This document shows, piece by piece, positions 19,856-63,844 of a stretch of DNA of 64,000 bases. Location of the stretch: NCBI GenBank assembly GCA_965198005.1, contig CBDAOI010000002.1, forward strand, positions 704,001 to 768,000, given 5' to 3'. Origin of the DNA: Spirochaetia bacterium. GTDB lineage: Bacteria; Spirochaetota; Spirochaetia; SZUA-6; Bin103. Both the position numbers and the translations under genes were made by a program. Position 1 is the first letter of the stretch, and each line of letters begins with the position of its first letter. Below the pieces are notes generated by a model. The model was not told where the DNA came from. It worked only from the letters and a program-made list of their open reading frames with translations, and did not search any database.

Positions 19856-21706
19856 CTAATAACCCATTGCTTCCTTCAGCCCTTGGTCAATCCAGAGGCG
19901 GGCGAGGACGTCACGCTCGCCAAATTCGTGCAGCCTCATTTCACCGCTAAAACCTTTGACCCACGGCTGGTTCGGCATAAAGAGTGGAGACATAGGACCC
20001 CATATCTGATTGTGCTGCCTTATAATGAGCAGATCCCACTCTTTGAATGCCCTCAGCTGCTCCTCATGGGTGGTAGCGGCGTAAAAGGCATCGTAGGCGG
20101 CGGTCAGCTCGGGGGTCTCGACTCCGCCCACGTTGTCGCGCCATAACTGCAGCGTCTGGCGATAATTGGCTACCCAAACGTCAGGGTCATTATACATGCC
20201 CCCGTCGCCATCGCTCATGTCCCAACGAAGTAGGTCTTCTTGGGGGACATCCTCGGTACGCTCGCCCACACCCCTGCGCTCGAACGCCCAACCTTGCGTG
20301 TCATATATCTCAATCTTTACCTCAACGCCAAGCGCCTCCCAGTAGCCGACTGCTATTTCTCGATAGCCCAAATCATAGACGTCGCGGTGGTCGAGCTCGA
20401 CCTTGAATCGAACGCCGTCCGCGCCGCGCTGATATCCAGCCTCATCGAGCAGCTTCTCGGCACCTTCCGGGTCATAAGTAAAGTATTGCTTGAGATCTTC
20501 GGGATAGTCTTCAAACGTGGTGCCATACGGCTTGCTGGCAATCCCCCCCATAGGTTCCCACCTTGCAAGCCCGCCATAGTAGGTATCGTTAATCGTCTCG
20601 AGGTCCAGTGCCATCTGCATGGCGTGGCGCACCCTGATGTCGTCAAAGGGTGGCTTGCGAATGTTCACACTAAAGGTGGCGTCGGACCGCAGGAAATTGC
20701 TGCTCACCTGGATATCGGGGTTGGTACGCTGGAGGCTCCTTACCACGTCGAGGTTCCTTATGTGAGTGCCCTGGCTATTGATTATGTCAACCTTGCCCGT
20801 GCGTAGTGCCGAGATACGTGTTGCTTCTTCTTCTATATGCAGGGCCCTCATCTCGTCAATATAGGGGAGGCGGTTCTCCGGGTATTTTTCGTCGTAGCGC
20901 CAGTAGTCAGGATTCTTTTCCCAGCTGATAGAGACGCCCTCAACATAGTCAGTCAGTATAAGGGGCCCGGTGCCGACCACGTTCTTCCAATCCTCATAGT
21001 TGCCGTATTTCTCGATTACCTCGGGGGGTAATATCCACTGCATAGCGTCGATGAGGATAGTCCTTAGCGCAATGAGGGATGGCTCCGTCATCTTCATGAC
21101 AACCGTATATTTGTCGGTGGCCTCGATCGATTCCCACGGCAGGTCGAACGCCTTGGAAGCGATCTGGGGACGTTCGGTAAAGTCGCCCTGAGCGTTATTG
21201 CGTTGCCAGTTATATGCGACATCATCGGCTGTGAGTTCCCGCCCGTTTACTAAGCGACTGGCCTCGCTGTCCGGATCAAGGGCGTAGTGTACTCCCGAGC
21301 GGATGTGGAAGATGTACGTCAGTGGGTCAGGCGTTTCCCAGCTTTCCGCCAGGCTCCCAGTTATGGCAAAATCAGGGGCGTAAGAGTCTCTAAAGTCATA
21401 TACCTCCCTATCTGTTCCCCAGTCCCCCCAGGCGAGACGCTCATTAACCGAGGCGATGTGGTAGCCCGCATTGACCCAGCTTTTCAGCGGGTCAGTAGTC
21501 TCCGCATCAAATACATAGGGATAGGTTATTGTGCCGCCATACACTGGCGCGGTTACCGCCTTTCCGGTGGTGGGGTCCATCACCATTTCCTTCTCCATCG
21601 CCGCGGCCGGCTCCTCTTCCCCGGCCGGGCTCGCCCAGAGGCCGGTTGCGGTCAGGACGAGACCGAACAGTACCGCCAGGCACGTTCGAAACATTACGTA
21701 ATGCAT
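19856..21706 (-). CDS. ABC transporter substrate-binding protein, family 5 (copy A)
   Basis: Signal peptide, PVYGGT, LAESWE, GTGP, PFDDIRVR; SD AGGAG before MHYVMF. Confidence 0.93.
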   Translation of the reverse strand: MHYVMFRTCLAVLFGLVLTATGLWASPAGEEEPAAAMEKEMVMDPTTGKAVTAPVYGGTITYPYVFDAETTDPLKSWVNAGYHIASVNERLAWGDWGTDREVYDFRDSYAPDFAITGSLAESWETPDPLTYIFHIRSGVHYALDPDSEASRLVNGRELTADDVAYNWQRNNAQGDFTERPQIASKAFDLPWESIEATDKYTVVMKMTEPSLIALRTILIDAMQWILPPEVIEKYGNYEDWKNVVGTGPLILTDYVEGVSISWEKNPDYWRYDEKYPENRLPYIDEMRALHIEEEATRISALRTGKVDIINSQGTHIRNLDVVRSLQRTNPDIQVSSNFLRSDATFSVNIRKPPFDDIRVRHAMQMALDLETINDTYYGGLARWEPMGGIASKPYGTTFEDYPEDLKQYFTYDPEGAEKLLDEAGYQRGADGVRFKVELDHRDVYDLGYREIAVGYWEALGVEVKIEIYDTQGWAFERRGVGERTEDVPQEDLLRWDMSDGDGGMYNDPDVWVANYRQTLQLWRDNVGGVETPELTAAYDAFYAATTHEEQLRAFKEWDLLIIRQHNQIWGPMSPLFMPNQPWVKGFSGEMRLHEFGERDVLARLWIDQGLKEAMGY

Positions 21707-21935
21707 TCGATAACTCCTATCGTTTGAGAGTACGAAGTTCACTGCCGGTCCCTCGCCTACTCTCGACGTATGCCTGCAATCGCAGGCGGTCAGAAAGCGA
21801 GGGCGACACCCTGGCGCGTCCCGGCGCGGCGGCTCGCCGCTTGGGCTCGATGCGCCATACCTGGCTGTCGTAGTCGTGTCTTGGTCGTGTCTTAGTCGTA
21901 TCCGGTCTTGGGCTGCATCCCTTCCTCCTTTTTGT
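21707..21935 (-). ncRNA. SBP leader, family 1, copy A (candidate cis-regulatory RNA)
   Basis: Homologous to 54667-54895, 57921-58122 and 62984-63185; conserved hairpins and uORF. Confidence 0.75.
21892..21918 (-). CDS. Leader peptide MQPKTGYD (copy A)
   Basis: AGGAGG SD 5 nt upstream of ATG; identical peptide in four copies, with a CAG/CAA synonymous difference. Confidence 0.7.
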   Translation of the reverse strand: MQPKTGYD

Positions 21936-22400
21936 CGATTTGGACGCACCGACCGCGCGACCGCGCGGCGGGCGCCGCGACCTGGGTCATTTGGCGCCAC
22001 GTGCAGCGCCGCTACCCGGGTACCCGGGTGGGCGGCGCAGCGGTGCCGAAGGCGCAGGTAGGGCCCAGTGAATGCCGCTGCGGGATCAGTCCGAGCGGTT
22101 AGTGATTCTTGATCGTCAGGTGTATGACAGAGTCCCGCGCCCGCCCGTGGGGGGGGGGACCATAAGCGCTAACTTGTTGTGGGCGCTACAGGGACCGTCC
22201 ATGGCTCTACGGTGCGACTGGCAGTAGCACGGACTGTAGCCGGACCCGTGACTCGGGTCAACCAGCCAGATCGAAGTAAGCTGACAACTGAGACAGCCGG
22301 CGCCGTGGCGGCTCCCCGCATCAGGTGATTGACGGCACGTGGCAACGAGCGTTATATTAGCATGCAATAAGCATCGAAAACCAATCCTGAGAGGCGTGCA

Positions 22401-52856: not shown

Positions 52857-54666
52857 CTAATAGCCCATTTCTGCCTTCAGCGCACTATCAATCCAGAGGC
52901 GGGCGAGGATGGGGAAGTAGTCCATGAATCCAAGGTGGGTTTCACCGTTGGATCCGACCACCCACGGCTGGTGTGCCATGTACTTTCCAGCTTTAGGACC
53001 CCATATCCACCAGTGGTTCTCCATGGTGTACATATCCACCTCTTTGACCAGCCTTTGCCGTTCCTCTTCGGACGTAGTGGCTTGGGCGGCGTCGAGAAGG
53101 GCGTCCAACTCAGGGTACCTGATTCCGTGTAAGTCCTCGTGGCTAGTCGAGTGTACCATCTGGCGTACAAAACCCAACGGCTCAGTATTGTTGCCCATGG
53201 TGTGATATATCAGACCTTCCCACGTGCGGTCACCTCGAACAGCAGTAGAGGCAGCTCCATCCAATACGTTGATCTGCACATCAACGCCAATCTCGGCCCA
53301 GTAGGTGGCAGCCAGTTCACTGAAACCCAAAGGAAACCGATAGAGATGGTTCAACACGGTCTTGAATCGCGTGCCGTCCGCGCCGCGCGGATATCCGGCC
53401 TCATCCAGCAACGCTTCCGCCGCCGCCGGATCGTACCGATAGCCGTCCTTGACCTCGTCGGGCCACTCGTCGAAGGGAGTGAAATACCCGCTGACGCCCT
53501 CCCCTATTATGCCCTGAGGCTGCCAGGCTGAAGTGCCCTTGTAGACGCTGCGGTCGATGCCCTCGAGGTCTATCGCCATCTGCATGGCTCGGCGCACCCT
53601 GACGTCGTCAAAGGGCGGCTTGCTCGCGTCCATAACATAAGAGGTTTCCGAACGGAGCCACCACGGCAGCAGCATGATCTCGGGGTTGCTCTTCCGGAGG
53701 CTCTCGAGCACCTCGACCGATACGATATCAGAGCCACCGGCAGGCAAACCTAGGAAATCAATCTTGCCGGTGCGCAGTCCCGCTAGACGGGTCTCTTCCT
53801 CTGTGATGATAAGGCCCTGAATCTCGTCAATATAGGGCAGACGATTCCCCGGGTACTTCTCGTCGTCTTTCCAGTAGTCAGGATTCTTCTGGAAGGTAAA
53901 AGAGCTGCCCTCGGTCCAGTCAGTAAGGAAATAGGGCCCGGTACCGACCAGGTTCCTCCAGTCCTTCACGTCACCGTACTGCTGGATGACCTCGGGCGCG
54001 TTCATATAGGTGAGGCCCAGGCCAAGATACTGTCCAAGAGCTGCGCTACTGGGCTCCGCCAGCTTGATAACAACCGTGTATCTGTCGGTGGCCGTTACCG
54101 ACTCGCCAGGTGGCCGCTGATACGTAAAGGGGCTCGGTCCGGCTTCGGCAAAGTCGCCCAGGCCCAGCAGGCGATGAAAGTTGAATACGACATCATCAGC
54201 AGTAAACTCTCTCCCGTTCATCGGTGGCTTGTCGTGCCAGTTCACACCCTTGCGGATGTTGAAGATGATCGTGAGGGGGTCGGGGGTGTCCCAGCTCTCA
54301 GCCAGATGCGGTTTATAGACGGATAGATCCGGAGGTATGTACGTGTTTCTGAACGAAAACACGTCCCTATCTATTCCCCAGTCCATGAGTCCCAGCTTCT
54401 CTGTAGTGCCGCCGGTGACCCTTGCTTGGGAATGAAGGAAATGGGTGTCAGCATTCGCTGGCTCGCCCGCGGTGGCAAAGGTCAATGTCCCGCCATACTC
54501 CGGCGCCACCACTACCTTGCCGGTGGTGGGGTCGGTCACGTACCTCTTCTCCGCGGCGGCGGCCGGCTCCTCCTCTGCACCACCCGCCCACAGGCAGGTC
54601 GCGGTAAGGGCGAGTCCAACCAGGACCGCCAGGCAACTTCGAAACGTTACGCGTTACGTAAAGCAT
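52857..54666 (-). pseudogene. Family-5 SBP (copy B), frameshifted in the signal peptide
   Basis: 7-bp duplication CGTTACG at 54645-54658; removing one copy restores a 600-aa ORF from ATG 54666. Confidence 0.88.
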
Positions 54667-54895
54667 TCGATAACTCCTATAAACTCCTATCACTCGAGAG
54701 TACGAAGTTTACTGCCGGCCCCTCGCCTACTCTCGCGGTATGCCTGCAATCGCAGGTAACCGAAAAAACGAGGGCGACACCCTGGCGCGTCCCGGCGCGA
54801 CGGCTCGCCGCCCGGGCTCGATCAGCCATACCTGGCTGTCTTGGTCGTGTCTTAGTCGTATCCGGTCTTGGGTTGCATCCCTTCCTCCTTTGGTC
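54667..54895 (-). ncRNA. SBP leader, family 1, copy B (uORF MQPKTGYD at 54852-54878)
   Basis: Homology to the other three copies; SD and uORF intact. Confidence 0.75.
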
Positions 54896-55043
54896 GATTT
54901 GAACTCGAATCCCGTACCGGCGCAAGCATGGCACCGGCGCGGCTACGTGTCAACCACGATTCGACAATCGACAATCGACAATCGACAATCGGACCCGCTC
55001 CGAACCCATCAATGCACGTGCGGCGCCACCCTCGGCGGCGCTC

Positions 55044-56120: not shown

Positions 56121-57920
56121 CTAATGCCCCATTTCTGCCTTCAGCTCACTGTCAATCCAGACCCGCGCGATGACGGTGAGGAAGTCCATACGTCCAAGCC
56201 AGATTTCACCGTTAAAACCGGCGAGCCACGGCTGGTGCGCCATGTAGCTTCCGGTTTTGGGACCCCATATCCACCAGTGGTTCTCCATGGTGTACATATC
56301 CACCTCTTTAGCCAGTTTCTGCCGCTCCTCTTCAGAAGCAGTGGCTTCGGCGGCTTCAATAAGCGAGTCCAACTCAGGGTACCTGATTCCGTGAAAGTCA
56401 TTCATACCGCTCGAGTGTACGGAGCCGCGTATATAAGACATAGGATTACCATTAGTGCCCAGAGGTTCCCACATCAGACCTTCCCAAGTACGGTCCCTTC
56501 GAGCAGCCTCAAAGGGGCCGGTATCCCATGGGTTGATCTCCACGTCGACGCCAATCTCAGCCCAGTAGGTCGCCGCTAGTTCACTGTAGCCTATACCCAG
56601 TGTAGCACTAATGTTCAGTGTGGTATCGAATCTGGCACCGTCCGCGCCGCGCGGATATCCGGCCTCATCCAGCATAGCTTCCGCCCCTGCCAGATCGTAC
56701 CGATAGCCCTTCTTGACCTCTTCCGGCCACTCTTCAAAGGGGGTGAAGTACTCGGTGATGCCTTCCCCCACTATCCCCTGAGGCTGCCACATCGACGTGC
56801 CCCTGTAGAAGTCGCGGTCAATGCCCTCGAGGTCGATTGCCATCTGCATCGCCTTGCGCACCCTGATGTCGTCAAAGGGCGGCTTGGACGCGTCCAGTGC
56901 AAAAGAGTTTGTCGAACGGCTCCACCACGGCTGCAGCACGATTTCGGGGTTGCTCTTCCGGATGCTGTCGAGTACTTCGACCGATGTGATGTTGGGCGGA
57001 CCGGTAGTGCTACCCATGAAGTCAATCTTGGCCGTGCGCAGTCCCGCCAGAATTGTTGCTTCCTCTTTGATGATAAGGCCCTGAATCTCGTCAATATAGG
57101 GCAGACGATTCCCCGGATACTTTTCATCGTCTTTCCAGTAATCAGGATTCCTCTGCAAGGTCATGGAGGTGCCCTCGGTCCAGTCGGTCAGCAGATAGGG
57201 ACCGGTACCGACCAGGTTCCTCCAGTCCTTCATGTCACCGTGCTCCTTGATGACGTCGGGGGGGTTTATGTAGGTGAGACCAATGCCGAGATACTGTCCA
57301 AGAGCTCCGCTGCTCGGCTCGGCCAGCTTGATAACGACCGTGTATCGGTCGCTGGCCGTTACCGACCCGCCCAGTGGTGGCCGCTCATACGTAAAGGGGC
57401 TCGGTCCGGCTTCGGCAAAGTCGCCCAAGCCTAGCTGGCGATGAAAGTTGAATACGACATCATCCGCGGTTAGCTCTCTCCCATTCATCGGTGCCTTGTC
57501 TTGCCAGTGCACGCCCTGGCGGATGTTGAAGATGATCGTGAGTGGGTCGGGGGTGTCCCAGCTCTCAGCCAGGTGCGGTACAAAGAGGGATGGAGGCATG
57601 TACCAGTGTCTGAACGCAAACACGTCCCTGTCTATTGCCCAGTCCATGATTCCGAGCTTCTCCGTGACACCGCTGGTGACCAGCCCTGGGAGATGACTGA
57701 CATGGGTGTCGGCATGCGGCGCCTCCAGCGACGTGGCATAGGTAAATGTCCCGCCATACTCCGGCGCGCTGACCATCTTGCCGGTGGACGGGTCGAGCAC
57801 CATTTCCTTCTCCATCGCCGCGGCCGGCTCCTCTTCTGCGGCGGCAGCCCCGAGGCCGGTTGCGGTCAGAACGAGACCGCACAGTACCGCGAGGCAGGTT
57901 CGAAACGTTACGTAATGCAT
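56121..57920 (-). CDS. ABC transporter substrate-binding protein, family 5 (copy C, no adjacent permeases)
   Basis: Signal peptide, PEYGGT, LAESW, GTGPY, PFDDIRVR. Confidence 0.93.
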   Translation of the reverse strand: MHYVTFRTCLAVLCGLVLTATGLGAAAAEEEPAAAMEKEMVLDPSTGKMVSAPEYGGTFTYATSLEAPHADTHVSHLPGLVTSGVTEKLGIMDWAIDRDVFAFRHWYMPPSLFVPHLAESWDTPDPLTIIFNIRQGVHWQDKAPMNGRELTADDVVFNFHRQLGLGDFAEAGPSPFTYERPPLGGSVTASDRYTVVIKLAEPSSGALGQYLGIGLTYINPPDVIKEHGDMKDWRNLVGTGPYLLTDWTEGTSMTLQRNPDYWKDDEKYPGNRLPYIDEIQGLIIKEEATILAGLRTAKIDFMGSTTGPPNITSVEVLDSIRKSNPEIVLQPWWSRSTNSFALDASKPPFDDIRVRKAMQMAIDLEGIDRDFYRGTSMWQPQGIVGEGITEYFTPFEEWPEEVKKGYRYDLAGAEAMLDEAGYPRGADGARFDTTLNISATLGIGYSELAATYWAEIGVDVEINPWDTGPFEAARRDRTWEGLMWEPLGTNGNPMSYIRGSVHSSGMNDFHGIRYPELDSLIEAAEATASEEERQKLAKEVDMYTMENHWWIWGPKTGSYMAHQPWLAGFNGEIWLGRMDFLTVIARVWIDSELKAEMGH

Positions 57921-58122
57921 CGATAACTCCTATCACTCGAGAGTACGAAGTTCACTGCCGGGCCCTCGCTTACTCTCGAGGTATGCCTGCAATCGCAGGC
58001 GGTCAGAAAGCGAGGGCGACACCCTGGGTCGTCCGGACGCGGCGGCTCGCCGCCCGGGCTCGATCGGCTTGGCTACGGCTTAGTCGTATCCGGTCTTGGG
58101 TTGCATCCCTGCCTCCTTTGGT
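57921..58122 (-). ncRNA. SBP leader, family 1, copy C (uORF MQPKTGYD at 58080-58106)
   Basis: Homology to the other copies; CTCGAGAGTA/TACTCTCGAG 10-bp stem. Confidence 0.75.
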
Positions 58123-58279: not shown

Positions 58280-58299
58280 GGGGGGGGGGGGGGGGGGGG
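58280..58299. repeat. Homopolymer G20
   Basis: Counted directly; the homologous position at 22149-22158 is G10. Confidence 0.85.
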
Positions 58300-58609
58300 C
58301 AGAAACGTACCACCGGCCGCTTCGAGGCTAACCAGTGGCTGTGCGGGTATGTGTCTTCATGCTGCATCATGCGCATCGGTCACGATCCCCAGGCAGTCAC
58401 CATAGCCCACGCCGCAACAGCCGTCAAGCGGGTGTCGTCAGGCACGTCAGGCACGTCAGGCATCAGCCGCATTGGTGAGGCTCGCACGGTGGTCACCCTA
58501 GCCGACGCTGCAACAGCGGTCAAGCGCGGCCAATGGCCTCCGCCGAGCGGCCGATGGCCAATGGTCGACGACAGCTCTGGAGTACACCTCGCTGGGCCAG
58601 GAAGAGGAA

Positions 58610-61183: not shown

Positions 61184-62983
61184 CTAATTACCCATTTCCG
61201 CCTTCAGCTCACTGTCGATCCAGAGCCGCGCGAGGAGGGTGAGGCGGTCCATGAATCCAAGCCAGGTTTCACCGTTGAATCCGACGACCCAGGGCTGGTG
61301 CGACATGTACTTTCCAGCTTTGGGACCCCATATCCACCAGTGGTTCTCCATGGTGTACATATCCACCTCTTTGACCAGCCTTTGCCGTTCCTCTTCGGAC
61401 GTAGTGGCTTGGGCGGCGTCGAGAAGGGCGTCCAACTCAGGGTACCTGATTCCGTGTAAGTCCTCGTGGCTAGTCGAGTGTACCATCTGGCGTACAAAAC
61501 CCAACGGCTCAGTATTGTTGCCCATCGTGTGGAATATCAGACCTTCCCAAGTACGGTTGCTTCGAACAGCAGTAGCGGCAGCTCCATCCAATACGTTGAT
61601 CTGCACATCAACGCCAATCTCGGCCCAGTAGGTGGCAGCCAGTTCACTGAAACCCAAAGGAAACCGATACAGATGGTTCAACACGGTCTTGAATCGCGTG
61701 CCGTCCGCGCCGCGCGGATATCCGGCCTCATCCAGCAACGCTTCCGCCGCCGCCGGATCGTACCGATAGCCGTCCTTGACCTCGTCGGGCCACTCGTCGA
61801 AGGGAGTGAAATACCCGCTGACGCCCTCCCCTATTATGCCCTGAGGCTGCCAGGCTGAAGTGCCCTTGTAGACGCTGCGGTCGATGCCCTCGAGGTCTAT
61901 CGCCATCTGCATGGCCCGGCGCACCCGGACGTCGTCAAACGGAGGCTTGCTCGCGTCAATCGCATACGAGTTTTCCGAACGGTCCCACCACGCCTGCAGC
62001 ACGATTTCGGGGTTGCTCTTCTGCAGGCTCTCAAGCACCTCGACCGACGTGATGTCAGAGACACCAACGGGAAAGCCCAGGAAATCAATCTTGCCGGTGC
62101 GCAGTCCCGCCAGATAGGTGGCTTCTTCCAGGATGATAAGGCCCTGTATCTCGTCGATATAAGGCAGACGATTCCCCGGATACTTCTCGTCATCTTTCCA
62201 GTAGTCAGGATTCTTCCGGAAGGTAAAAGAGCTGCCGTCGGTCCAGTCAGTCAGCAGATAGGGACCGGTGCCGACCAGGTTCCTCCAGTCCTTCACGTCA
62301 CCGTGCTCCCGGATGACCTCGGGGGCGTTCATATAGGTGAGGCCGATGCCGAGATACTGTCCGAGCGCTGCGCTACTGGGCTCCGGCAGCTTGATAACGA
62401 CCGTGTATCGGTCGGTGGCCGTTACCGACTCGCCAGCGGGCCGCTGATACGTAAAGGGACTCGGTCCGGCTTCGGCGAACTCGCCCAGGCCCAGCAGGCG
62501 ATGGAAGTTGAAGACGACGTCATCAGCAGTAAACTCTCTCCCGTTCATCGGTGCCTTGTCTTGCCAGTTCACCCCTTTGCGGATGTTGAAGATGATCGTG
62601 AGCGGGTCGGGGGTGTCCCAGCTCTCAGCCAGATGCGGTCGGTAGACGGATAACGGTATGTACGTGTTTCGGAACGAAAACTCGTCCCTGTCCATTGCCC
62701 AGTCCATGATTCCCAGCTTCTCCGTGGTGGCGCCGGTGACCATTGCCTGGACATGGAGGAAATGGGTGTCAGCATTCACTGGAGCGACCCCGCCAGTGGC
62801 GTAGGTCAAGGTCCCGCCATACTCCGGAGCGCTGACCATCTCGCCGGTGGCCGGGTCGCGCACCATTTCCTTCTCCATCGCCGCGGCCGGCTCCTCTTCT
62901 GCGGCGGCAGCCCAGAGGCCGGTTGTGGTCAACACGAGACCGCACAGCACCGCGAGGCACGTTCGAAACGTTACGTAATGCAT
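61184..62983 (-). CDS. ABC transporter substrate-binding protein, family 5 (copy D)
   Basis: Signal peptide, PEYGGT, LAESW, GTGPY, PFDDVRVR; SD AGGAG. Confidence 0.93.
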   Translation of the reverse strand: MHYVTFRTCLAVLCGLVLTTTGLWAAAAEEEPAAAMEKEMVRDPATGEMVSAPEYGGTLTYATGGVAPVNADTHFLHVQAMVTGATTEKLGIMDWAMDRDEFSFRNTYIPLSVYRPHLAESWDTPDPLTIIFNIRKGVNWQDKAPMNGREFTADDVVFNFHRLLGLGEFAEAGPSPFTYQRPAGESVTATDRYTVVIKLPEPSSAALGQYLGIGLTYMNAPEVIREHGDVKDWRNLVGTGPYLLTDWTDGSSFTFRKNPDYWKDDEKYPGNRLPYIDEIQGLIILEEATYLAGLRTGKIDFLGFPVGVSDITSVEVLESLQKSNPEIVLQAWWDRSENSYAIDASKPPFDDVRVRRAMQMAIDLEGIDRSVYKGTSAWQPQGIIGEGVSGYFTPFDEWPDEVKDGYRYDPAAAEALLDEAGYPRGADGTRFKTVLNHLYRFPLGFSELAATYWAEIGVDVQINVLDGAAATAVRSNRTWEGLIFHTMGNNTEPLGFVRQMVHSTSHEDLHGIRYPELDALLDAAQATTSEEERQRLVKEVDMYTMENHWWIWGPKAGKYMSHQPWVVGFNGETWLGFMDRLTLLARLWIDSELKAEMGN

Positions 62984-63185
62984 TCGATAACTCCTCTCAC
63001 CCGAGAGTACGAAGTTCACTGCCGGCCCCTCGCCTACTCTCGAGGCATGCCTGCAATCGCAGGCGGTCAGAAAGCGAGGGCGACACCCTGGGTCGTCCCG
63101 ACGCGGCGGCTCGCCGCCCGGGCTCGATCGGCCTGGCTACGGCTTAGTCGTATCCGGTCTTGGGTTGCATCCCTTCCTCCTCTTG
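62984..63185 (-). ncRNA. SBP leader, family 1, copy D (uORF MQPKTGYD at 63144-63170)
   Basis: Homology to the other copies; SD AGGAGG. Confidence 0.75.
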
Positions 63186-63844
63186 CTTCTGTCTCGCTTT
63201 TGTCGATTCGGACGCATGGGCCGCACGGCGGGCGCCGCGACCTGGGTCACAGCGCCACGTGGAGCGGTGTCGAGATGTGACGGGGGGGGGGTACAGGAAG
63301 TCCAGCTGCGTCACCGCGATCCGGTGCCAGCGCTGGGAAGTATCATCACGTATCATCGTCCGCATGTTTCCAAGAACCCTGAGCATCGCACTGTGCCATG
63401 GCGCGACAAGCACGTCAAGTCACCGATTCGGTGGCCAGCAATTCTCGGTGAACGGCTGGTAGAGGGGCAGAGTGTCATAAGCTCAAGCCCTCCGTATGTG
63501 AAATGCGACCATGCCCCACCTGTTGGCCCACCGCGTGAATGCGCGACCCAATAATACCCATTCCTCCCGTGAAAGGCATGCACCGGACGGCCCGACCCGG
63601 CCCGACCCGGCCCGACCCGGCCGAACTTCTATAACTGATTGCAGGTGAAGTAGTTAGCCACCGTCATGCAGCCCCGTGCGATGACCTGACCACCGTCAGC
63701 CACCGCCGCTCGGCCGATGCCGCGGGCTGGCGCGGTGCCGCGATCGGCCCTTCGGGGCCGGTTGCCCGCGCGCCGCCGGCACACCTGCGCCGCAGCCCCA
63801 GTCAGGGATCGTTCAGGGAGCAGGTTCAGTTCCCCAGGGAGCGG

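Follow-up and report, generated by a model that had tools for sequence, protein, structure and literature searches.

The 64-kb stretch of DNA analyzed here (the window, to which coordinates refer unless prefixed) is from an uncultured Spirochaetia bacterium whose genome, G000, is 90% complete and has a GC content of 66%. The window contains four paralogous genes for family-5 solute-binding proteins (SBPs), which start at 21706, 54666, 57920 and 62983. Each is preceded by a copy of the same leader (copies A, B, C and D, in that order), and all four copies are on the minus strand. The leader has a short upstream open reading frame (uORF) with its own Shine-Dalgarno (SD) sequence, followed by a set of interlocking helices and then by the SD and start codon of the SBP gene. 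The order of these elements is identical ahead of the four genes, and the core formed by the helices is a predicted H-type pseudoknot. The leader family at these sites is confirmed, as the covariation counts exclude chance. All four SBPs match PF00496, and none of them reached a specific NCBIfam cut-off.

The original prediction, made from the letters of the window, had described a leader of about 200 nt common to the four genes. Every core element that it named is present in all four copies on the minus strand, and the element order stands. The size of the family and of the leader do not: about 50 copies were found, and the ∼200-nt stretch is predicted to be the 3′ part of a leader of ∼470–520 nt, counted from promoter matches (∼520 nt for copy A). 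The features are as follows.

22233–22261, minus strand: sigma-70-like promoter match of copy A (TTGACC, 17 nt, TACAGT), a consensus match only
22149–22158, minus strand: poly-C tract of leader A (10 C), well upstream of the uORF and at the opening of a stretch with more C than G, read in the sequence
21924–21929, minus strand: AGGAGG, SD of uORF A, 5 nt ahead of the ATG, from the sequence
21892–21918, minus strand: uORF A, ATG CAG CCC AAG ACC GGA TAC GAC TAA (MQPKTGYD), from the sequence and a coding signature
21820–21845, minus strand: P0 of copy A, a GC-rich hairpin (GCGGC...GCCGC type) between uORF and pseudoknot, from the sequence
21797–21808, minus strand: P1 5′ strand of copy A, TGTCG (P1a) and CCCTCGC (P1b), from covariation
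21771–21788, minus strand: P2 hairpin of copy A, GCCTGC-GATT-GCAGGC, inside loop 1; four of six pairs changed on both sides
21758–21764, minus strand: P3 5′ strand of copy A, GAGAGTA, from covariation
21743–21756, minus strand: P1 3′ strand of copy A, GCGAGGG (P1b), a 2-nt bulge (AC) and CGGCA (P1a), from covariation
21726–21732, minus strand: P3 3′ strand of copy A, TACTCTC, closing the H-type pseudoknot, from covariation
21704–21719, minus strand: ribosome-binding site of SBP A, TAGGAGTTATCGAATG, with the start codon at 21706–21704, an AU-rich stretch, from sequence and composition
19856–21706, minus strand: SBP A gene, 616 amino acids, SBP_bac_5, from a profile match
54664–54889, minus strand: leader copy B, with uORF at 54852–54878 and pseudoknot at 54696–54779; SBP frame broken and SD duplicated
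57918–58117, minus strand: leader copy C, with uORF at 58080–58106 and pseudoknot at 57939–58021, from the sequence; SBP gene at 56121–57920
62981–63181, minus strand: leader copy D, with uORF at 63144–63170 and pseudoknot at 63003–63085, from the sequence; SBP gene at 61184–62983

The pseudoknot core

The pairing was assessed over 25 base pairs, those of P1a (TGTCG/CGGCA), P1b (CCCTCGC/GCGAGGG), P2 and P3 (GAGAGTA/TACTCTC). In a MAFFT alignment of 24 copies from the genome itself, 93.9% of the cells are paired, compared with 38–49% when the partners are slid, and 8 of the 25 pairs are changed on both sides, a value as high as which none of 500 shuffles gave. The original prediction had looked to a covariance model and a search of related genomes to judge the leader. 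An alignment of 87 matches (81 distinct) from it has 92.8% of cells paired versus 34–57% in slid registers and compensatory changes in 21 of the 25 pairs, and the covariation score over the 81 distinct copies is 0.220 versus 0.03–0.06. These copies are from seven genomes of the genus (G000, G001, G003 and G005–G008), three genomes of a sister genus and one contig titled Aggregatilineales. Their alignment was fitted to P1 and P2, and so these two helices lean towards the model; P3 was outside the search model. Taken alone, P3 is 93.3% paired, five of its seven pairs are compensatory and its score is reached by none of 500 shuffles. Because GAGAG/CUCUC is repetitive, P3 slid to register −2 also pairs, but without any compensatory change. 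The variants of P3 include GAGAGCA/TGCTCTC, GGGAGTA/TACTCCC, GAAAGC/GCTTTC, GAGAGTG/CACTCTC and TAGAGCA/TGCTCTA, and those of P1b include CCTTCGC/GCGAAGG, CCGTCGC/GCGACGG and CCCTCGT/ACGAGGG.

The 5′ strand of P3 lies within P1 and its 3′ strand lies outside, and therefore P1 and P3 either alternate or form an H-type pseudoknot. In all seven copies tested, the best fold with P1 is 3–30 kcal/mol below the best fold with P3 enforced. Thus P3 would not be selectable if it had to displace P1. As both helices covary in the same sequences and P1 is the more stable, the two must coexist as a pseudoknot, whose purine-rich strand GAGAGUAGGCGAGGGGCCGGCA has two pyrimidine-rich partners. The original prediction had instead proposed CCCTCGC/GCGAGGG as an alternative to GAGAGTA/TACTCTC, a reading that the joint covariation does not sustain. 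A further hairpin that it proposed, AGGGTGTCGCCCT, is not conserved: the GGG is lost in other copies, and the loop and 3′ arm belong to P1. A nested competitor, the extension of P1 that pairs CUUUCU with GAGAG/GUC in the RNAfold minimum free energy (MFE) structure, was rejected for want of covariation; it is 78.3% paired versus 78.9% in shuffles, and 398 of 500 shuffles are as high.

The core is thus, as read from these alignments, an H-type pseudoknot with a P1 of ∼12 bp and a bulge, a P3 of 7 bp and an optional P2. In minimal copies the connectors are 5 nt (P1 5′ strand to P3 5′ strand), 1 nt (P3 5′ strand to P1 3′ strand) and 9 nt, as in a classical H-type knot. The variable parts are loop 3, the bulge and junction 1, and P2 is optional; such weak loop conservation is compatible with a pocket in a stem groove. 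The distance from the end of the pseudoknot to the SBP start codon is 10–60 nt, mostly 18–31 nt, and the SD falls within it. In a genome of high GC content, the ribosome-binding region of the SBP genes is AU-rich, unpaired and outside the knot.

Rfam 15 at its gathering thresholds gave no match over the 64-kb window, and a scan of leader C by E-value gave only xerDC, at 17.8 bits versus a threshold of 72.5 (E = 1.4). This agrees with the original prediction, which had recognized no riboswitch consensus. The leader looks like an RNA control element that is new to Rfam.

The upstream open reading frame and the leader around it

The 16S rRNA 3′ end of the genome reads ...GGATCACCTCCTT (also written ...CACCUCCUU), with CCUCC as the anti-SD, and AGGAGG is therefore a full-strength SD. 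Among the 49 leaders of the genome considered further below, 37 have an SD-like site with a start codon 4–12 nt on and an open reading frame (ORF) of 1–11 codons (one assigned by eye); random ORFs at 66% GC are estimated to average ∼40 codons. The peptides take the forms [M]xP[KRQ]TGYD, M[KT][HL]PTGYD, MKS[PA]YD and MQTLTVYD/MQILTVYG, and further forms are an ATG-TAG start-stop, MxN, MK[LP] (MKFQR in a relative) and MILKEP.... No run of a single codon or amino acid is present in uORF peptides such as MQPKTGYD, MKSPYD, MxN and M-stop, and the original prediction that this is not an amino-acid-run leader is borne out, also by the lack of terminator-like sites in leaders A and C.

At the codon level, the only difference among the four window copies is the synonymous CAG/CAA, as had been noticed at the outset. 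A BLAST search with the uORF region gave 22 matches in five genomes, and the eight-codon frame is kept in 20 of them; the frame, which the original prediction had proposed to follow in more homologs, is thus preserved in most. Variation in the TGYD codons is limited to the third base of Thr (ACC/ACG) and of Gly (GGA/GGC/GGT/GGG); all three stop codons (TAA, TAG and TGA) occur but TGG does not, and Lys is replaced by Arg through AAG to CGC. One tabulation of these codons is biased, as positions one and two of each codon were fixed in its pattern; the unbiased basis is the other comparisons of the copies. The two variable sites among 12 are exactly the two that are four-fold degenerate, which by simple arithmetic has a chance of ∼1 in 66. 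The uORF is probably translated, with the C-terminal TGYD under peptide-level selection in the YD subfamily.

The uORF stop lies between −5 and 99 nt from the structure, mostly 13–82 nt, and in the start-stop and MxN subfamily it is 7–44 nt (mostly 7–26 nt) ahead of P1. The spacers after the stop are short and variable. Indels in this spacer among the four window copies had been reported and are present; in leader A the spacer is rich in ACGAC repeats. Hairpins of the P0 type were seen again, by eye, in other leader types. At C4:580398–580600 (minus strand), an upstream SD and ATG appear by eye to open a 46-codon frame that is in phase with a MKSPYD uORF and has the same stop.

Promoter-like sites are found at 22261–22233 (copy A) and 58427–58399 (copy C), ∼300 nt upstream of the uORFs; a scan of leader A gave two matches versus 0.1 expected. 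Just upstream of the site of copy C, at 58440–58470 on the minus strand, CCTGACGTG is repeated in tandem about three times. The segment from promoter to uORF contains a poly-C tract of 8–22 C, a short region with stops in every frame, a conserved CCGGCGTTGCCGG hairpin and ∼200 nt with more C than G; the excess is 0.05–0.16 from −330 to −120 relative to P1. The two leaders scanned for intrinsic terminator-like sites, A and C, have none. The gene for Rho is present (TIGR00767, 698 bits, above the cut-off). Neither RNase J (TIGR00649) nor CsrA (PF02599) was found in this 90%-complete genome; a CsrA-bound leader and an RNase J mechanism were dropped on that account, which is no proof of absence of either gene.

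The poly-C tracts lie ∼200–270 nt upstream of the uORF and are followed by ∼45 nt with stops in three frames (CACTAA...GGCTGA motif). On the minus strand they are 20 C long in copy C (58280–58299) and 10 C in copy D (63282–63291), and most other leaders of the genome have them too. A 140-nt repeat, present in 24 near-full copies of 96–100% identity (e.g., C4:651560–651699), ends just before the poly-C of many leaders and could be a promoter cassette or the end of a mobile element. In seven of nine copies that follow this repeat, an ORF that reads M-V-R-S-(Pro)n ends 9–43 nt past the poly-C. This is suggestive of a uORF read through the poly-C but no more than suggestive, as long ORFs are common at 66% GC. 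Candidate roles for the poly-C region are the loading of Rho and a poly-proline uORF that is prone to slippage.

At the RNA level, metatranscriptome contigs from all four runs compared cover parts of the leader. Some of them bridge leader and coding sequence (X17 record 1, 21300–21840; X24 record 26, 21581–21819) or cover the uORF (X21 record 21, 21716–21987). Such contigs give no starts, ends, strand or level, and stretches without coverage (e.g., ∼22040–22150 in three runs) are uninformative. Loose contig ends at 21989 run on into paralogue-like sequence and are not transcript ends.

Family size, distribution and exchange of modules

Leader C used as a BLAST query finds 22 places in the genome, a core profile (nhmmer, E < 1e-3) finds 50 and the covariance model gives 54 matches. 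The same order of helix strands, by a loose pattern, is found in 49 of the 50 nhmmer places; two of these 49 are visibly defective, one being a fragment and the other lacking the last strand. An ORF of 482–616 amino acids starts 10–60 nt downstream of 39 of the 49 leaders, and all 39 products are 43–100% identical to SBP C. Most of the remaining copies are ahead of broken SBP starts. Several architectures occur. P2 is present in the type of the window copies, long in another and missing from a third, in which the gap from the first strand to the third is only 5 nt; a fourth type has an extra hairpin at the junction, and a fifth is divergent. Three decayed leaders were also noted, at C4:200071–200171, C1:94510–94601 and C4:1307400–1307490; among them are a fragment of the core joined to unrelated sequence, a copy truncated after the 3′ strand of P1 and one with the SBP start and signal peptide deleted. 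A miniature inverted-repeat transposable element or insertion sequence (IS) end was considered and rejected on the 39 of 49 copies that stand directly ahead of full-length homologous SBP ORFs. The scan of the 64-kb window gave no Rfam or IS-like match for the leader elements.

In a wider set of genomes, the covariance model finds the leader in seven of the 11 that represent one uncultured Spirochaetia genus (matches: G000, 54; G001, 52; G005, 28; G006, 20; G003, 16; G007, 6; G008, 4). The other four have none; two of these four consist of a single contig and are 95% complete. Weak matches were obtained in 3 of 13 genomes of a sister genus, and none in 17 genomes from other families of the order. 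In a sample of the class (151 genomes), the sole match outside the genus was taken as spurious; it is in DNA of 45% GC and no SBP start adjoins it. Judged by these searches, the motif is confined to one genus and is not found convincingly outside it. The sister-genus matches (L058–L060) are single short leaders with hairpins like P2 and P3, without P1 or a uORF, and may be a simpler relative of the element. They have a promoter-like site directly upstream, and the SBP that follows has a similar signal peptide.

The leader is present at 19 of 66 loci with SBP relatives; 18 of the 19 are in records with a Spirochaetia title and one (L085) is on a contig titled Aggregatilineales bacterium. The latter has a complete leader with MQPKTGYD and with G-U-compatible changes in P1b, and represents either a cassette acquired by transfer or a spirochaete contig that was mis-binned. 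SBPs that are 62–73% identical to SBP C in amino acids are found in metagenome-assembled genomes (MAGs) titled Dehalococcoidia or simply 'bacterium', with unrelated upstream DNA. This suggests that the SBP was transferred between phyla without its leader. The homologs in question are L084, L087, L088, L095 and L098; the 'bacterium' MAG is low in GC, and one of the proteins has a repeat domain fused to its N-terminus. Related records bear the title 'MAG: Spirochaetia bacterium', and runs labeled sponge metagenome contain parts of the stretch, in small shares. The host lineage is probably sponge-associated.

The core of copy A is 96% identical to those of C and D, in contrast to 41–42% for the mature protein and 62% for the coding nucleotides; the original prediction was thus right that SBP A is divergent. 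Conversely, an SBP that is 74% identical to that of copy C has a minimal leader without P2 or a start codon. From these comparisons, 5′ modules have clearly been exchanged between paralogues, and promoter, leader and signal-peptide modules would be shuffled among them. Over all 741 pairs, the median nucleotide identity is 64% for the core versus 63% for the coding sequence. As the core is no more conserved than the coding sequence, the fold is kept by compensation and not by recency. It is retained through compensatory changes in paralogues that are only 43–50% identical in protein.

Mechanism, rival explanations and known systems

The original prediction had inferred a ribosome-dependent attenuator or riboswitch. 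Its structured leader and the coding signature of its uORF stand; the alternative-pairing switch proposed with them does not. The reading that we put forward, tentatively, is that of a modular leader in which a uORF keeps a ribosome in place and the pseudoknot is a docking, standby or stabilizing structure. Independent modules are favored because the knot stands at no fixed distance from the uORF and is retained in leaders that have lost it. In this scheme, a ribosome held by the uORF on a long, C-rich and G-poor leader would shield the leader from Rho-dependent premature termination or from decay. Perhaps the TGYD-stop ending prolongs ribosome occupancy at termination. The pseudoknot, as the conserved core, would be sited where the 30S platform meets the mRNA. 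It would most likely be the docking site of a common trans-acting factor, or else a standby or stabilizing structure, and in that role would govern translation initiation and mRNA lifetime across all the SBP genes.

If the pseudoknot and the TGYD mini-peptide are regulatory, ∼50 binding-protein genes of uncultured spirochaetes form a post-transcriptional regulon, and nutrient scavenging would be central to the probable sponge-associated lifestyle of these bacteria. A compact RNA core of 57–90 nt with natural compensatory mutants and an 8-residue peptide with a selection signature can be tested in vitro without culturing. A bolder proposal is that P-x-T-G-Y-D-stop is a new, very short arrest or termination-pausing peptide and that the pseudoknot is read by the 30S platform or a dedicated factor; together they would couple an uptake repertoire of ∼50 genes to the state of translation or metabolism in a sponge symbiont, with poly-C slippage switching individual genes. 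This whole scheme is speculative, and we regard it as improbable.

Several observations weigh against the modular leader. Nine of the 49 leaders have no uORF and three are ambiguous. Two of the 22 YD-type copies are frame-broken by a 1-nt insertion, one of them also with ATG changed to AAG; the uORF is thus dispensable in part of the copies. The peptides of the subfamilies differ completely, which speaks against one peptide-specific sensor, and so do six type-II leaders in which AAAGGAGG and GAC-TAA are kept with ATA, GTA or CTA in place of ATG. The stretch where C exceeds G is upstream of the uORF and not after its stop. The covariation counts are not phylogeny-corrected, the loops vary across copies, and the stem sequences are more conserved than pairing alone demands. 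This last feature could result from gene conversion between leaders and not from recognition by a factor. The RNA contigs may derive from relatives, paralogues or carried-over library DNA.

The nearest contender is a constitutive element, in which a stable pseudoknot and a ribosome-bound SD act as mRNA stabilizer or insulator and keep the AU-rich ribosome-binding site free. It accounts for that site being unpaired and for the AAGGAGG that is retained in the six type-II leaders without a start codon. We consider it unlikely, as ribosome parking needs no peptide-level selection on TGYD, the stems are conserved beyond structural need and RNase J was not found in the 90%-complete genome. STAB-SD elements, ribosome-protected 5′ stabilizers of Bacillus reportedly described by Agaisse and Lereclus in 1996, offer a parallel in their perfect SD within the leader, here kept without a usable start codon in the type-II leaders. 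STAB-SD-type elements block RNase J, a 5′ exonuclease. Most copies of the present leader differ in having a start codon and a selected peptide, and the site is ∼300 nt from the predicted 5′ end. A ribosome-protected 5′ stabilizer is described for hbs of Bacillus subtilis as well (PMC5737220).

In a ribosome-coupled two-state switch, translation of the uORF would select the pairing, and ACUCU (or CCCUC) would hide the SD of the SBP gene or of the uORF. The leader has the pieces for it: besides two pyrimidine tracts (CCCUC and CUCUC), there are four purine tracts, among them the two real SDs. CCCUCGCUUUCU is paired with the region of the uORF SD in the RNAfold MFE structure of copy C, and the uORF stop of the start-stop and MxN subfamily comes shortly before P1. 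The joint covariation of P1 and P3, with P1 always lower in energy and the nested alternative without covariation, makes such a switch quite doubtful. Moreover, the distances of uORF to structure and of knot to start codon both vary widely, and variable spacing in leaders of which 9 of 49 have no uORF argues against tight coupling to ribosome position. The ACUCU:GGAGU pairing consists of only 4–5 weak pairs, and as the SD is fixed by the ribosome, covariation cannot judge it. Should the pseudoknot be a small-molecule aptamer that brings one metabolic signal to all SBP genes, the uORF would be incidental. A compact, covarying H-type knot in the 5′ leaders of transporter genes, kept where the uORF is lost, is what such a riboswitch calls for. 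This would nevertheless be a long shot: no conserved pocket is evident, with loops and junctions variable, P2 dispensable and a hairpin insertable at the junction; the SD is outside the fold; leaders A and C have no terminator; Rfam has no match; and the motif occurs in a single genus, before a single family of paralogous genes. That the leader has no function of its own, having been carried along by gene duplication and homogenized by gene conversion, would fit the swapping of 5′ modules, the restriction to a genus and the broken copies. It is very improbable given compensatory double changes in 21 of 25 pairs amid diverging loops and spacers, TGYD variation that is synonymous only, and a fold kept among paralogues at 43–50% protein identity.

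Known leaders offer partial parallels to the modular arrangement. In the Escherichia coli tna operon, the TnaC arrest peptide (24 amino acids) and a Rho utilization (rut) site by its stop bring about Rho-dependent attenuation. Likenesses are the short leader ORF that ends at a stop with C-terminal residues under selection (here in the YD subfamily only) and the long leader with C-rich RNA, an encoded Rho and no intrinsic terminator in leaders A and C. The present leader differs in its 8-residue peptide, in the C-rich stretch upstream of the uORF, in the conserved pseudoknot after it and in the ∼50 copies per genome, and its other subfamilies have start-stop or unrelated mini-ORFs. It also differs from attenuators of the trp and his type, as regulatory codon runs are absent and leaders A and C have no terminator hairpin with a U-run. 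The cat-86 and cmlA leaders end in Asp at the stall site, and the mammalian S-adenosylmethionine (SAM)-decarboxylase uORF is MAGDIS. These drug- or metabolite-sensing peptides likewise have 5–8 residues of which the last ones matter, and Asp at or near the C-terminus. In contrast to their leaders, the downstream RNA here is a pseudoknot at variable distance and not a hairpin that overlaps the uORF.

For the structure itself, the H-type pseudoknot riboswitches preQ1-I, SAM-II and guanidine-III are comparable in size, in two stems that share a continuous strand, in their place in the 5′ leaders of transport genes and in covariation. The present knot departs from them in having the SD outside stem 2, no terminator, no Rfam match, unconserved loops, an unusually long P1 (∼12 bp) and a range restricted to a genus. 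The E. coli rpsO/S15 and alpha operon/S4 mRNAs have pseudoknots that serve as translational operators and include the SD or start codon. Like these operators, the knot is just upstream of the initiation region, where a protein or the 30S platform could recognize it; unlike them, it ends 10–60 nt before the start codon and the targets are many unlinked genes. The literature searched, supplements aside, yielded no description of this leader and nothing relevant for the peptide strings or the cat and cmlA leader peptides.

The genes that follow the four SBP genes vary. Copies B and D have two permease genes each downstream, the gene after SBP C is of the Uma2 family and that after SBP A encodes glutamate synthase. 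In copy B, a 7-nt tandem duplication (CGTAACG) right after the ATG at 54666 breaks the SBP reading frame. It is one of three small tandem duplications in the region 54640–55003 on the minus strand; the SD is doubled as well (ATAGGAGTT), and GATTGTC is repeated four times upstream.

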